A stretch of 60,387 bases of DNA, the filler included, from Squatina squatina (Eukaryota): NCBI GenBank assembly GCA_031763465.1. It is 4 parts of 4 records of this genome, joined end to end, with 100 filler letters (N's around TTAATTAATTAA, not from the genome) between each part and the next. Parts side by side here need not be neighbours in the genome. Positions count along the whole stretch, not along the records: positions 1 to 17,395 come from JARFOE010000013.1; 3 more parts are not named here. One strand, 5' to 3'. Made by a program: the position numbers and the translations under genes. Under the pieces are notes generated by a model, which saw only the letters and a program-made list of their open reading frames with translations, was not told where the DNA came from and did not search any database. Positions within the stretch are counted from its first letter, which is position 1. The number at the start of each line of letters is the position of its first letter. Below are positions 2,444 through 54,300 of this stretch, in pieces.

Positions 2444-3184
2444 TGATAGAGGAAACATAAGGAGATTGGGACTGCTGGTGAAAGGGGGGGTGTGATTGAG
2501 GTTGCTGGTATCGCTCATTAATTATTTCATCATGTAGAGCCTGGGCAGAATGGGGCTGTCTACGTTGTAGCCTCCCTTCCTCTTCCTCCATTTCCTCTTG
2601 CACTTCCTCCTCCTCCACTCCCTCCTCATTTTCTTCATGCTCCTCAGCTTCTCACCTGATAGGTGGTGGCAAGGGCTGTTCCCTCATAATGGCTGGGTTG
2701 TGCAGCATGCAGCATACTAATACAAATCTTGATACCCACTCAGCTAAGTACTACAGGGTTCCTCCAGAGCGGTCCAGGCAGTGGAAGCATTGTTTGGGGA
2801 TGCCAATGTTGTGCTCTATAATGATCCTTGTGGCAGCATGGCTCTCATTGTAGGCCTGCAGTGCACTTGTGCATGGGTTCCAGACCAGTGTCATAAACCA
2901 TGTCATCAGTGGATAACCCTTGTCTCCCAGTAGCCAGCCTCTGAATTGCCGTAGTGGGTCAAAATACAGTTGGCACAGAGGATTGCCACAGAATGAACAA
3001 ATTGTGACTACTGACAGGATAACAGGCATTGACCTGCATGGTGCACTACCTGTGGTCGCACACCAGCTGCACATTGAGGGAGTGGAATTTCTTTCGGTTC
3101 AGGAAAATGGCAGAGTTGACACAAGGCGCACACAAAGCAATATGTGTGTGCAGTCAATGGCACCCATGCAAACCCTCGTGCTCA
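2444..3184 (-). mobile_element. PIF/Harbinger transposase remnant, C-terminal half (HARBI1/DDE_Tnp_4-like), disrupted
   Basis: Minus-strand translation [14 protein letters not shown]...YNESHAATRIIIEHNIG...CLDRSGGTL, then CCMLHN and an acidic tail, with stops and frameshifts. Confidence 0.9.
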
Positions 3185-3284
3185 NNNNNNNNNNNNNNNN
3201 NNNNNNNNNNNNNNNNNNNNNNNNNNNNNNNNNNNNNNNNNNNNNNNNNNNNNNNNNNNNNNNNNNNNNNNNNNNNNNNNNNNN

Positions 3285-4145
3285 CCTCCAGGCAGTGGAT
3301 GTGTTGCTTGAGGATACCGATGGTGTGCTCTATAATGTTCCTTGTGGCAGCGTGACTCCCACTGTAAGCCTGCTGTGCAAGTTGCATGGGTTCCGGACCA
3401 GAGTCATGAGCCACGTCATAAGTGGATAACCTTTGTCACCAAGTAGCCAGCCTTTGACTTGCCATGGCGGGTCAAATACAGATAGCACAGAGGACAGCCG
3501 CTGAATGAATCACGACTACAGCCAGGATAATCGGTATTGACCTGTATGATGTGCTACCTGCGGCCACCCACTAGCTGCACATTGAGGGAGTGGAATCACT
3601 TGCAGTTTAGGAAAATGGCCGAGTTCACATGAGGCACATGCAAGGCAATGTGCATGCAGTCAGTGGAACTCTGCACCATGATAAAGCTTACAATCCATGC
3701 AAACCATCATGCTTGCTGTGCCTGCTTGTCTCTAGAGAGAGAGAATGAGATAAACCTGACCTTCCTTCTGCAGTAGTGTACTGCGAACTGTGGATTGTTC
3801 TCCAGCAGCAGCCTGGAAGGAGCCAGATGCGTAAAAGTTAAGAACCAAAGTCACCTTGACAGCCACGGGCAATGCATTCCTTGCTCTGCTTTGAGGTTGC
3901 AGTTGTGGCTCCAGCGATTTCAGTCGTAACTTCTTTTGTGAAGTGAAGACGTTTCAAGCATTGGTCCTGAAGTTTAGGTAAGAGAATTGTTCCCTAAAGT
4001 CTCTCTGCAGATGTGGCCTCCTGCTGAGAGCCCTTCTTCCCCTCTTTCTCCTCCCTGTTCTAGCAGCTTGTCCTGCTCTGCAAAGCCTCTCTTCATTCTC
4101 CCAGTTTTGCTCAGTTCCAAGAGGAAGGCCTATCAAGCAACCCAT
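3285..4145 (-). mobile_element. PIF/Harbinger transposase remnant, N-terminal and central part (second, diverged copy)
   Basis: Starts MGCLIGLPLG...RRALSRRPHLQRDFREQFSYLNF at 4145, continues through degenerate NFYASGSFQAAAG, and reaches [10 protein letters not shown] and HAATRNIIEHTIGILKQ. Confidence 0.9.
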
Positions 4146-8005: not shown

Positions 8006-8421
8006 TCCTCAGTAAGACCTCAGATACAAGTTTTAGGAGCCCTGTTGGTGAACAATTCCTTCAGTTAGCTTCAGCTCCATACAAATTAGAGTTCCTGTGG
8101 TCCGAGCTTGTCCATGCAACACAAATAGTGAACACTCCAAAGCAGAACAAGAACAGTAAACCTACAAAGCCAGCATAATGATTACCAGTACGTTGATCCT
8201 CTTGATTAGGAACAGTTCAGGGATATTTTAAAGAAGGAAAATAAAACAAGCAAAAACAGACAAAGAATGGACAACAGGCTTAGATCTGAAGGATTTCAGA
8301 CCAGTGCAATTGATCTTATTTTGTTCCCTCCTAATCCCATGAGTGCACAATGACGGTAATGGTTTTGGATTTATACTTTTCATCCCCTTTACCAGAAATC
8401 AGTTAGTCCTAAGATACAGAC

Positions 8422-8595
8422 CCAGTGTAGCTAAGACATGGCGAAGTTCAGCCCCCATTACTGTGCCATTTCCTTCCTTATCGAACACTCTCAGACCCTC
8501 AACGAAGTCCTCAAATGTGCCCTGGTCCTTAGCTTTGCAGATATGTTGATGCATCGGCAGAAAGGTGTCAAAGTCCAACATCTTTATATTCATCT
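8422..8595 (-). CDS. MYL3: Internal exon of a myosin essential light chain (MYL3-like, cardiac/slow type)
   Basis: 174-nt exon with ttttccag acceptor and GTCTGT donor. Encodes (E)[57 protein letters not shown](G). The family is secure; MYL3 over MYL4 rests on KEGNG/LPM and on neighbouring KLHL18 and SETD2 exons. Confidence 0.85.
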
Positions 8596-8884
8596 CTGGA
8601 AAATAAAGGAAATTAAATTTATTTTATTAAAAAAATTTTTAATCACAGTATATAACTAGGTGCAACAGAGCATCACGAATCCCATGAATTTCTACATTTG
8701 CACTTAGACAATCACTGTTGAAGTACCGTAAGTTCACTTAAAACATTACAAAGTGACAATGTTGNNNNNNNNNNNNNNNNNNNNNNNNNNNNNNNNNNNN
8801 NNNNNNNNNNNNNNNNNNNNNNNNNNNNNNNNNNNNNNNNNNNNNNNNNNNNNNNNNNNNNNNNATCGCAATTTCAGGGCCATA

Positions 8885-9313: not shown

Positions 9314-11160
9314 TATAGAAATCTCTTTTCCTGCCTAAGCGTATGATCTGTCAAGAAAAATCTTGACAGATCGCAAGTGCCGGATGGCACTGGGCATGCG
9401 CAGTGCAGCCCCAGATTCAGCACTTGGGCGTTCCCCCTGGATACATGGGAAAATCGTACCCACCCGGGGGGGGGGGAAATTTCAGCCCCAATATTAAAAA
9501 AGCAAGGAATGAGAAATGGCCACTGAAGCTTCCTTCCAAATGTCATCCGCTCTGATCTGGACTCTACCCAAATCCTACTTTTTCTCCTTAAGAAAGGTTC
9601 TGTAAAACTTCTCCCAGCCCCAGAGGTAAGTCAAGCAAAACTCCAGAATGCCTCCTACATTATTCATCCCAGACAAGTTCCCACCTTTGACATGACATTT
9701 CCATGCTCTCAGCAGCAACAACAAAAACTTGCATTTATATAGCAACTTTAACGTAGTAAAAACGACTCAAGGCGCTTCACAGGAGTGTAATAAAACAAAA
9801 TATGACACCGATCCATGTGTTCCAAGCGATATTTAGTCACCTCTGTCTGTGCTTTTCCTTTTAGCCATAAATCTCAATTCCTAATTCGATATCCATCCAA
9901 ATCTTTTATTGAAGTTGTTAATCGACATGGCAATAACTGCTTTATCTGAGTCTATTCCATTTACTTGTTGATCTGTGGAGGTAAAAAAAACCTTCTAATC
10001 TTCATGTTTCATTTAGTGCTTGTCAATTTTGGATCCTGTCCTCTTGTTTTGTGCTCAGAGACCCAGTTAATTAATTTACTTGCATTTACATTCTTCTCAG
10101 ACACCAAAATAACTGGGATCATGATCCATCATCGTCCGTCTATTCTCTAAAANNNNNNNNNNAACTAGTTCAGTTCGGTGAGTCTCTCCTTACAACTTAG
10201 AGCACTGAATTCTGGAATCATCCTGTCTCTGAACCCTCTCCAATGCAGAAATGTCTTTTTGAAGGCTAATGTGTTCAAAACTGTCCAAGATATTCAGAAC
10301 ATTGCGTTCTATTATGCAGGTCCTGGTATATCTTATAGGTTGAAAAACACACTTCAAATGGTTGAACTAGCCAGCGCTGCAACGGTTAATGCCTCACAAC
10401 AGGACTGAGCCAGAGATCTTAACTGTGTTAAGTTTCTTTCAACTTAATGTGATGTCACACCAAAGTCATCCAAAGATAGCTGGAATCATCAAAATGTTGG
10501 CACAAAATGCCCCTCCTCTCTGCTTCCCCTCCCTTGGTGTCTGTGACATGCCTGATGAAAGCTGTTTAAATAGCTTGTTCCATATCCTCAATCCAATTCT
10601 GGACTTTCCCTTGGGAGGCACCTGGCATTTGTCCTCTCAAAGGCATCGAGATTGACGACAACAGTGGTTACTCCCCCACCCCCACAGTAAGTGACCTNNN
10701 NNNNNNNNNNNNNNNNNNNNNNNNNNNNNNNNNNNNNNNNNNNNNNNNNNNNNNNNNNNNNNNNNNNNNNNNNNNNNNNNNNNNNNNNNNNNNNNNNGTT
10801 CATGACTCGGATCGTCATCTTGGAGTACTGAGTCAAACAGGTAAACTGCGCAATGTGCTGAAACTTTGTTGTGGGCCTGGGGGTGGAGGAGAGGGACAAT
10901 CAGACCAGCCAGATTCCTTTAAGGGGCATTTGCTGAGAGTTGCATCTTGGACAATCCTTGCCAAATTTCAGACAGAGAATGGGTTATTTGCAGCAGGAGG
11001 CTCACTTCTGACTCCTCATCTCCAGCTGAAGAAAAAAAAAATTTTGTCGCCGATAATTCTGCTCTATTAACGAGGAGCACAAATAAATGACAACATGAAA
11101 CATTCCTTAAAGGAGCTGGACTAGTCTAGACCTTTTGAACATCCCCGAGTTAACACAGAC

Positions 11161-11297
11161 CAGCAGAATTGAGTCCTCCCACTGCGTAGATCAAGCCAGC
11201 GATGGAGGTGCAGCATCTTGGCCGTGTCTTGAAAGATGGCAGGTGAGGGCGGCGCTCGGGCATCAGGTGATAGTCCTTTGCCTCGTCAACGAGGTCC
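11161..11297 (-). CDS. KLHL18: Internal exon of kelch-like protein 18 (end of BACK region to first kelch repeat)
   Basis: 137-nt exon with ttttgttttacag acceptor and GT donor. Encodes (R)[45 protein letters not shown]. Not represented in the ORF track. Confidence 0.92.
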
Positions 11298-11779
11298 CTG
11301 TAAAACAAAATGGCACAGTCCTGAGATTCACAGACCAGCAGCTCTCCTACTTCANNNNNNNNNNNNNNNNNNNNNNNNNNNNNNNNNNNNNNNNNNNNNN
11401 NNNNNNNNNNNNNNNNNNNNNNNNNNNNNNNNNNNNNNNNNNNNNNNNNNNNNNTCCCCTTGTGCTACTGTCAGGGATTAGTTAGAAGTACTGTTCCAGT
11501 CTACTTTGTCAACTGGTTTACTATATCTGTAAGATCATCTCTTTCCTTTTCAGCCCCCTTTCCAGGGTGAAGTACCCAGGGGATCAACTTTAACCTGGAG
11601 CAGGTTTTGGGCAGGCAGGGAAGGGGGGCAGGGCGCTGACAAGGGAGACGGACCTACGTCGGGCTATTTAAGTAAAATAAAGAAGTGAACCTGACCGCGG
11701 AAATGCGGAGTGGGTTCAGGTTACCATGTGTGAAGTGCACCCGGTTCAGGATTTTAATGCACTTTCTTTCTGCCTGCAG

Positions 11780-16640: not shown

Positions 16641-16758
16641 AATATGGCTTTTGGTGAGATATGACTGAACTCGTATCATAATCCGAATCTCAGGATCCCT
16701 TTCTCACCAACACACACGCGCTCACATGCATACGCACATGCTGTACACCCGCACATAC

Positions 16759-16827
16759 CTGGCGGTAAGAGTTGGGTGTCCCGTCTCCACTTCCATCTTG
16801 TCCATGTAGCTCAGTGAGCATGGGGTC
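16759..16827 (-). CDS. SETD2: Candidate 69-nt in-frame cassette exon of SETD2 (DPMLTELHGQDGSGDGTPNSYRQ)
   Basis: Strong pyrimidine tract ttgtttgtttcttgttacttttag and donor CAG|GTATGT. Phase 0/0 matches the upstream SETD2 exon on the same contig, and there is no stop codon. Confidence 0.6.
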
Positions 16828-17159
16828 CTAAAAGTAACAAGAAACAAACAATAAGACATCTGCTCCAGCTTCCTTTAGCTGACAGATGTCACACGGTCTT
16901 TAGGATATAACAATCAGGTAACACTGGCGGATAAGAAATGCAGTGCAGACGGGTAAAGGGCGCAGAGCAGACAGGTAGTAATATGCCAGTGGGTAAGGGT
17001 GCAGAGCGGACGGGCAAGGGACGCATCAGCGTGTGAAAGACACAGTGCCAGAGTAACAGATGCGCCTCCGCTGAGTGAGAGATATGAAATCATTTTGTTT
17101 TGCACTGAAATCTCGAGAGTCATTAACGCCCTTCCCGGTTCAGCAGCAAGAAACGTCAC

Positions 17160-17271
17160 CTTGGCTGGATTTTCATCGTACGTGGGGGTCCCGAGGTCCA
17201 TTTCAGCTTCGTGACCTACGCTCATGTCGTCACTGCCTCCGTCCCACAACGGTGGGTCCCACTGCGTTTGC
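17160..17271 (-). CDS. SETD2: Internal exon of H3K36 methyltransferase SETD2 (end of WW domain and linker)
   Basis: 112-nt exon with ttccttcag acceptor and AAG|GTGACG donor. Encodes (R)QTQWDPPLWDGGSDDMSVGHEAEMDLGTPTYDENPAK. Confidence 0.95.
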
Positions 17272-31859: not shown

Positions 31860-32132
<273 letters not shown>

Positions 32133-50576: not shown

Positions 50577-51330
50577 GGCAGCAATGTGAGCAGCTGGTGT
50601 TGCATTACCCTCATCACCTTCTTCCTCCTCCTCCTCCTCGGAATCTACCGCAGATGATTTACATTCTGCGCCTTGCTCCTCCTGCAGGTTCAAACCTTGC
50701 TGTGTGCAGTGTTGTACAGAGTGCAGTGCACCACACCATTCTGGACACCCTGTCCCGGCACCTGAAGCACATCTTCAGCATGCCGATGGCTTGTTTGATC
50801 ACATATGATCATATGGCATTCATTGTAGCACTCTTGGGCTTCAGTGGTTGGGTTTCTGATGGGTGTTATCAGCCAAGTTTGAAGTGGGTATCCCTTGTCT
50901 CCTAGAAGCTACCCTTTAAGTGGGGAGCTTGGACTGCCATAAGATGAAAGCATCATGGCAGCTCTCTGGGAATTGTGTGCACACTTGCAGAAATATCTTA
51001 TTGTGATTTCACAACAGCTGCACATTGATGGAGTGGAAGCGCTTGCAAGTGACGAATACTCCTGGTTGATCTGGGGGTACCTGGATTGCCTTAGATTGTG
51101 TGCAGTTGATGATGCCCTGCACCTGTGGGGAGCCAGCCAAATGTACAAATCTGAGTGCCCACTCAGTCTGACTGGCATCATCGCAGGTGAAGTTGACATA
51201 ATTGCCAGCCTTGGAAAAGAACCACTAATCAGCAGTGTTATGCATTTGTGTACAGTTGACTGTATCATGACAGCAGGAAACGTGATGAGATGTAGAAAAT
51301 GACAATGAGTAAGGGCAAGTGGAGCCTTTG
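50577..51330 (-). mobile_element. PIF/Harbinger transposase remnant (third, older copy)
   Basis: Reverse-strand motifs [32 protein letters not shown] and CCTLHN, plus an acidic tail; multiple disablements. Confidence 0.85.
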
Positions 51331-54300
51331 TTCCTCTCCACATAGGTGTTCCCAATCTTTAACGAGGCAGGCCAAAGTGGATTGCAGATATAAGCCTTAA
51401 TTCAGGCCATTTGGGGTTTCAAATTCAATTTACCATTTGTCCCGAGTGATTGGCCAGCATTCCCTTCAGGTGGGCTGCACTGTATAAATGCAACAGATCC
51501 ATTTACTGTACCAGAGCAGAAATGGACAGCTCATGCTGTTGTTTTTCCAAACCAGCTGGGAATCACAGTCCATTGAATCAAGCCCATCCATAAAGTGTTA
51601 TTTGAATTCCCTGCTGGTTTTCAGGATCCTGGTAGATCACAGGATCTGCATCTGACAGTAATTTTATACAATTTGAACTATGGCCTGCTTTGGAAAAATG
51701 CCTTGTAAACAGGGCTAAAGAGTGAGTCTGGATCAATACCTCGGAACTGATTTTGATCTTCCATTAGGTGGGGGTAAATGTCAATAATGGATAAGCACTG
51801 AATCCAAGCTGCTTCAAATTATTTGGAGCAGTTCAAATTCAGCCCAGTTCATTTTTGATGTAGTTTAAGTTGCCTGTCATGCAAGTATAGAANNNNNNNN
51901 NNNNNNNNNNNNNNNNNNNNNNNNNNNNNNNNNNNNNNNNNNNNNNNNNNNNNNNNNNNNNNNNNNNNNNNNNNNNNNNNNNNNNNNNNNNNATTACAAG
52001 ATCAATGCCCGATCCCCTTGTTGCCACAGAGACTATTGAGAAATGAATATGAAGAACACTATAAATAAAAGATTAAAGATGATATGGCTCATAGAGTGTA
52101 AAATATTAAGGGTTGCAGAAGATCTGCTGCCAACTGTTCTGACCAAATTAACCCCCTCAGGGGTTGCACACTGTCCAAAGGGTGAGTCGGTGTTAAAACT
52201 GGAATCGGTTTGAATAATGCTATGGAATATTGATAATTAAAATATTAATGCAGTTATATAACATTCCGTTGTTCACAAGCTGAATGGAGGCATTAAGTTG
52301 TATTTTGATGGATTAATCCCTCTATTGGAGTTAAAGTTAGGGAAATTTTAGACAGATGTGTTAATGCAATTGCTGTTAATATCCCAGAATGCACTTCCAG
52401 CATTTAATTTGAAAATCAACTTATAATATGGCAGTGCCATTTCTTCTGGGCCAACATTCCCACCTGCTTGTCATGTAAATTTTTAAAGGTTCAGCTGTGA
52501 AGGTGCTGAATGGAAAATAGTGCAGCATTTATGCAGCCCTACCTCTCTGCGAGCCTGCGCTCTCAAAACATTTGAATCAACTCCGCCTCGGTCCAACCAT
52601 CTTCAGTTGCTTCATCAATGAACTTNNNNNNNNNNNNNNNNNNNNNNNNNNNNNNNNNNNNNNNNNNNNNNNNNNNNNNNNNNNNNNNNNNNNNNNNNNN
52701 NNNNNNNNNNNNNNNNNNNNNNNNNCTCGAAGGGCCGAATGGCCTACTCCTGCACCTATTTTTCTATGTTTCTATGTTTCTATACTCTATTGCACGACTC
52801 CAGATTAGGTTTCTTCATTCCTGCCTGGCACTTGCCTTGCTTTGATAAAGTCTGAGAAGTATTTAAGGTTCATTTTGAAGCTTGATGAAGGCCATAACAA
52901 TAATACCCCCATGCCATAAACAACTACATGCCATTAAGTACGGATATCTTTTTACGTTTAACCTGCCAGCTAAATTTTGTGCATCCCACATTAGGCTAAC
53001 TGCTAGCACAAGGCCAAAGCTTATTCAACTGAGCTGATCCTGCAAAATTAGCCACAATCAGCCCAGTTGGCTGTGGGCTAGTTTGGGCCAGATACAAAAT
53101 TGGTGCAATGCTCCTTGCTCCAGTGGAAATTTTGTCGCAAAGATAAGGAAATAGAAACTATCTATGATAACTCAGTGCCTTTAGAAGAGATGGGGAAAAA
53201 ATTTGGAGAGAGGACAATCATACATTTTGATATATGGAAAAGGAAACTGCACAGAAGACTATTTGTTCAAGTGGATGAATACATTACTACAAGGGATAGT
53301 ATTCCTTCTGGCAACTTCTGTCACAGCCACCAGGATAGCTTCATGGCCGAGGTGAAAAGCATTGCAAACAATGATGTCACTGTGCTTATTCAGACAACAG
53401 AAGAAGGCTTGATTGTTGGAATGGTGAATAGGTGTTTACAAGCAGGTCTGTGCATATTGAAATTGGCAGGTCATACAGCTCGGCACAGTGTGCTATTGAG
53501 CCTAAGGGTATACACGATTCCTGCATAAGTTAGATTGAGGCATTTCTTGAGAAATGAAGAGGAAGTCAAGGTGAGGAGTGTATCTGGGGAGAGTTATTTT
53601 CATGAAATGATGGCATACAAGGTTCAATTTAGACCACTCGAGTGGAAGCGTTTGCTGAAAAGCTATCTCTTCATTCTCTGACACCTATTAAAACTCTGTA
53701 AAAAACAAAATATTAAAATTGCTGTCATAACTTGATGTACAAGAGCTGTGTGAATTTCCCCAGTGCATTCCTGGCACAGAATAAGTTGATGAATTAGTTG
53801 CACAGAATTCTACTAGGTGGAATAGATATTTACATTTTAATATGGTCATGGCAATATTGTCAAAACTAGGAAATATCAGCCTGTAACATTGAATAGAAAC
53901 AGGGAAGATGATTAATATTGATACAAATGAAACAAAAAAAAGTTTCCTTTAATATTAGTATTTGAATTCACCACAATGTTGACATTTGTCTCCTCAGTTC
54001 TTCCAGGACTGTTTGTTTCTTTTGACATTGTTAGCTCGGGATAGATTTTGCATTAAATAAACCTTAATAAAAATTCAAACTGAAGCCTCAAATGATTGAA
54101 ACTGTGGTTTAATGCATTTTCTAATGAATTTGACTGGAGAGACTATAAACTCTGAATAATTCAAAGCATGATTAAAATGATCAAAGATTGAAGTGAGACT
54201 TGATACACCTTGTTATCTCATTTTATTTACTATTCAGAACTCTTCTAACTATTAGAAGAAAAGAATATCAATTTTCAGGCCTGTCATATCATGCAAGTGT

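Follow-up and report, generated by a model that had tools for sequence, protein, structure and literature searches.

Cassette exons activated by RBFOX proteins are marked by (U)GCAUG in the intron downstream of them, and neural microexons of the SRRM4 type by their length (at most 27 to 51 nt) together with a UGC just before the acceptor. For the junction in SETD2 considered here the described counterparts are automatic gene models. Those of Scyliorhinus canicula (XP_038664840.1), Heptranchias perlo (XP_067835011.1) and Rhincodon typus (XP_048451680.1) have a 23-residue insert there, and a further R. typus RefSeq model (XP_048451681.1) is without it. Of the turtle Carettochelys insculpta there is a model with an insert at the same junction (X1, XP_074841354.1) and a second (X2, XP_074841355.1), while the coelacanth (XP_064410107.1) and the lungfish Protopterus annectens (model P0192) also have an insert at this point. 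Human and mouse SETD2 likewise have annotated cassette exons, of 168, 124, 135 and 15 nt in the VastDB rows for the gene (PMC5630039 Table S4); none is 54 or 69 nt long. In the human and mouse data examined, nothing corresponds to the exon described below, and 11 further supplementary files of the same study gave no match.

The DNA analysed here, called the window, is a stretch of 60,387 nt from Squatina squatina, made of four parts of the genome joined end to end with filler between them. A sequence-only reading had proposed that it holds an unannotated cassette exon of SETD2, regulated by tissue. The reading to which the present analysis leads, and which we hold to be probable, is that this is an exon shared with sharks, rays, coelacanth, lungfish and turtles, likely present in most mRNAs of this species by virtue of its strong splice sites, likely skipped in a minority of them, and predicted to lengthen a disordered linker by 23 residues. 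Sequence, frame, splice signals, orthology and the skipping models of other species are what it rests on.

An exon between WW and SRI

The features of the locus are collected in Table 1. The upstream exon, read on the minus strand from 17270 to 17160, encodes 37 residues ending in TYDENPAK that match residues 983-1019 of human SETD2 chain 9egz_l (E 1e-13), its last residue being the equivalent of human K2450; more SETD2 exons lie upstream of the 69-nt exon on the same scaffold and strand. The exon itself translates as DPMLTELHGQDGSGDGTPNSYRQ. Everything that had been pointed out in the sequence is there: the stop-free phase-0/0 segment 332 nt beyond the exon ending in TYDENPAK, its donor, and both GCATG elements after it.

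Table 1. Features of the SETD2 locus in the window (positions along the whole stretch; a slash in a motif marks the exon-intron boundary)
Feature	Positions	Strand	Remarks
SETD2 exon, 112 nt	17160..17271	minus	covers the end of the WW domain and the first half of the WW-SRI linker
Phase-0 intron, 332 nt	16828..17159	minus	donor AAG/GTGACG
U-rich 3' splice site	16828..16857	minus	pyrimidines 22/30, of which 19 T
SETD2 exon, 69 nt, 23 residues	16759..16827	minus	phase 0/0, stop-free
5' splice site CAG/GTATGT	16753..16761	minus	matches the U1 consensus at 8/9 positions
GU-rich tract	16699..16758	minus	13 TG in the 60 nt after the donor; both RBFOX motifs inside
GCATG, RBFOX core motif	16737..16741	minus	intron +18; candidate
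TGCATG, full RBFOX motif	16725..16730	minus	intron +29; candidate

The acceptor is free of AG from 16861 down to its own AG, and a CTGAT at 16917 in the 332-nt intron resembles a branch point and may serve as one. Scored against the general U1 donor consensus, the donor of the upstream exon agrees at 5 of 9 positions, as against 8 of 9 for that of the 69-nt exon. When the same filters were applied to 110,092 nt of the window (both strands), 16827-16759 was the sole candidate exon, and the stretch is present as a single copy in this genome assembly. A profile of the orthologous inserts matches it at E 7e-19. The SRI exons that should follow were not found in the assembly with three queries, which shows nothing because the assembly is so fragmented (1.15 million contigs); so the joint of the 69-nt exon to the next one does not come to light in this assembly. 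Taken together with the orthologues, these points mark the segment as a genuine coding exon of SETD2 between the WW and SRI domains.

A side observation concerns the DNA of the exon (16759-16827) and that of the one preceding it (17160-17270), which are weakly alike (a score equalled by 2.6% of 2000 shuffles) and share a G-T-P motif. An old duplication of part of the preceding exon could be behind the likeness.

The same exon in public gene models

A search with the SETD2 region of Arapaima, a query lacking the insert, gave 340 matches, and the insert is absent from the 120 of them listed. A search with the insert-bearing region of Carettochelys returned 16 of 156 candidates, all with the insert, from turtles, coelacanth, lungfish, sharks and rays; among cluster members, Carettochelys X1 is X2 plus 18 residues at the junction and otherwise identical, and of 177 proteins it is the one whose insert matched the window peptide best (E 6e-4). 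The tally in Table 2 also took in members of ten of these clusters, 15 members being listed of clusters of 90, 277 and 116, and its sampling is skewed both ways, the query without insert favouring absence and that with insert favouring presence.

Table 2. SETD2 proteins listed, by presence of the insert
Group	Proteins	With insert	Without	Other
Elasmobranchs (17 species)	54	49	4	1 fragment short of the junction
Turtles	23	14	6	3 with other 3' ends
Coelacanth	2	2
Lungfish	1	1
Ray-finned fish	109	0	108	1 not reaching the junction
Mammals	37	0	34	3 not spanning the junction
Birds	17	0	12	5 not spanning the junction
Caecilians	4	0	4

Among the junction-spanning elasmobranch proteins listed, 49 of 53 thus have the insert. 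It is 23 residues long in the insert-bearing elasmobranch RefSeq models and 18 in turtles, coelacanth and lungfish, where the core D-G...G-T-P-N is shared with the window. The window peptide shares 19-22 of its 23 residues with each of nine proteins from sharks and rays (21-22 of 23 for the three RefSeq models named above), a likeness that also marks the genome as shark-like and comes close to the 33-37 of 37 identical residues of the exon upstream in nine elasmobranch proteins; search, profile and alignment all confirm conservation of the peptide at this SETD2 junction. Pfam has no family for it. That the segment might be a pseudo-exon due to chance, or the remains of a decayed exon not spliced in here, would be in keeping with its residue 22, which is R in the window and S in all 49 elasmobranch inserts, RefSeq models included. 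That view is scarcely credible, however, in the face of 22/23 identity to the inserts of Scyliorhinus and Rhincodon and of a frame and splice sites that are intact.

Since NCBI models under the name SETD2 contain the exon in 17 elasmobranch species, the coelacanth, the lungfish and turtles, the claim that it was unannotated, and with it the claim of novelty, fails: automatic annotation of these animals already includes it. The statement that canonical human SETD2 is without the peptide fits the 34 junction-spanning mammalian proteins listed, all of which lack it. As matters stand, confirmation of an exon already held by automatic annotation is of little consequence. The exon is in no title or abstract found in a literature search; a turtle paper naming SETD2 concerns point changes.

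Inclusion and skipping

Among the elasmobranchs listed, Rhincodon typus and Stegostoma tigrinum alone have skipping models, two out of five in each species; one of the two from S. tigrinum has another piece of 10 residues in place of the insert. In turtles they are more frequent (Table 2). In whale shark, zebra shark and turtles the exon is therefore a cassette exon, and to this extent the proposal that it is one was borne out, through isoforms with and without it in Rhincodon, Stegostoma and turtles, that is, in orthologues. It is on orthologues, too, that statements about inclusion and skipping in Squatina squatina itself are based. In 15 of the 17 elasmobranch species every listed junction-spanning model includes the insert, though the number of gene models does not measure inclusion, and an exon used in few tissues can still appear in most models. 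Newer VastDB releases may cover cartilaginous fish and may already hold tissue values for it.

Should the exon be constitutive in this species, with skipping peculiar to carpet sharks and turtles or mere annotation noise, the strong splice sites would be as expected, as would the lack of any skipping model listed for those 15 species, the coelacanth and the lungfish. We consider this quite improbable, given that two shark species and several turtles do have skipping models, that the exon keeps frame and that the proteins listed from ray-finned fish, mammals and birds do without it. Strong splice sites and models that mostly include the exon fit inclusion by default better than a need for a tissue factor, and argue against a tissue-restricted exon.

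The junction has further optional pieces: 10 residues in two carpet sharks (P0197, P0199, P0203, P0206 and P0207, from Stegostoma and Rhincodon) and, in several turtles, 24 residues that follow the insert (P0180, P0181, P0245 and P0251). Annotated alternative splicing clusters in the SETD2 intron at this point.

RBFOX motifs in the downstream intron

That (U)GCAUG is present in the proximal downstream intron, at the two places given in Table 1, is confirmed; the 332-nt intron upstream has no RBFOX motif. Both motifs occur together in 0.14% of 50-nt windows taken from 77 kb of this genome, as against 11.7% of the sequences made by shuffling the dinucleotides of the local 44 nt, and shuffles of the local 94 nt hold the pair in 4.4%. 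The pair is only partly beyond chance, being rare genome-wide and common for the local GU-rich tract. The exon is like RBFOX-activated cassette exons in being short and frame-keeping and in having a pair of motifs close downstream within a GU-rich tract, and unlike them in its strong splice sites and mostly-included models.

From these motifs the exon had been taken to be a neural or muscle switch, included mainly where RBFOX binds the two downstream GCAUG motifs. The resemblance just described apart, several points speak against this: more than a tenth of the shuffles of the local 44 nt yield the same pair, only including models are listed for 15 of the 17 elasmobranch species, and the donor is stronger than that of the constitutive exon preceding it. 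Moreover RBFOX2 is described as acting also in liver, pancreas and epithelial cells (PMC11874969), so that RBFOX control by itself would not amount to nerve or muscle specificity. We therefore think such a switch unlikely, and restriction of the exon to nerve or muscle is unsupported. What stands of the sequence-only interpretation is a real, conserved, in-frame SETD2 exon that isoforms of related species skip; its unannotated status is what has gone. On the preferred reading of inclusion in most mRNAs, RBFOX or other GU-binding proteins may yet aid inclusion from downstream.

An SRRM4-type neural microexon was considered and rejected, the exon being 69 nt long and the last 20 nt of the intron before it having no TGC.

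Likely consequences for the protein

In an insert-bearing shark protein (P0212) Pfam places WW at 758-787 and SRI at 866-947, with the insert at 818-840. An AlphaFold2 model of it, built from 20 sequences only and with a mean pLDDT of 41.8, has no secondary structure over 777-855, insert included (pLDDT <50), and its first SRI helix begins at 851. As the insert region is unstructured in this model, the 23 residues are predicted to lengthen a flexible, disordered WW-SRI linker.

The junction corresponds to human K2450/A2451. The third nuclear localization signal of human SETD2 was predicted to begin at K2450, and K/R mutation validated it in the fragment 2423-2564; binding to Pol II requires SRI (both PMC7542105). 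The main basic cluster of the signal stays in the next exon, so import should change little with the insert. Conservation within the insert is highest at T-P-N, which is found in all 11 distinct inserts and is, judged by its sequence, a possible proline-directed kinase site. The insert may have a mild effect on the reach of SRI to the Pol II tail, and a similarly mild one on the localization signal beginning at the junction, perhaps via the conserved Thr-Pro site.

History across jawed vertebrates

Genomic DNA of exon-bearing species was looked for in a metagenome scan, in which 122 candidate stretches reduced to three loci, judged by sequence likeness to be of teleost type (L020), mammal type (L021) and invertebrate type (L022). 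With the insert profile, neither the one complete teleost-type intron at the same position (about 1.19 kb) nor the one invertebrate-type intron there (443 nt) held a homologue or candidate exon, and the mammal-type locus is an intronless SETD2 copy without the insert. That copy (L021:1025-1617) has a frameshift near 1459 and is likely a processed pseudogene; the teleost-type setd2 intron begins with GC (AAG/GCGAGA, L020:1135-1140) and is a GC-AG intron. Cluster representatives searched with the exon plus intron read-through gave five matches, one of them shark SETD2 and the other four unrelated repeat-rich proteins, three of which were checked in Pfam; no read-through fragment was among them.

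Placed on the accepted vertebrate tree, an exon held by elasmobranchs, coelacanth, lungfish and turtles would go back to the jawed-vertebrate ancestor, with about four losses. It would have arisen in that ancestor and been lost separately, from the genome or from the models, in ray-finned fish, the caecilian, mammals and birds; for the last three, absence means absence from protein models, and chimaera, skates, frogs, lizards and crocodilians lie outside the sample. Such patchy retention was not found in print and is a minor point.

The boldest reading joins all these strands: an RBFOX-controlled switch exon from the jawed-vertebrate ancestor, an acidic spacer whose conserved Thr-Pro phosphorylation site stands directly before the third localization signal and SRI, tuning the coupling of H3K36me3 in the nerve or muscle tissue of sharks, coelacanth, lungfish and turtles. 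On this view the exon would have disappeared at least four times, from ray-finned fish, amphibians, mammals and birds. We regard this reading as decidedly improbable. Should regulation by tissue be demonstrated, SETD2 would have a splicing switch of long standing next to the domain through which it is tied to elongating RNA polymerase II, and the exon would be a clear example of a single exon lost several times from a conserved chromatin enzyme.

Other features of the window

On the minus strand, 8402-8623 is a myosin essential light chain exon, with MYL6 and MYL3 as best PDB matches (E 1e-30), and 11153-11353 is a kelch-like protein exon with a weak match to KLHL2. The latter we take to be KLHL18, the human neighbour of SETD2 and MYL3, an identity that would fit conserved synteny with these two genes. 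A decayed piece of a DDE_Tnp_4 (Harbinger-type) transposase at 2754-3098 (minus) passed Pfam; similar transposase frames near 3011-3700 and 50693-51358 did not. In another part of the joined stretch, the exon at 31860-32132 (plus) belongs to a ubiquitin-conjugating enzyme (UQ_con, E 7e-14).
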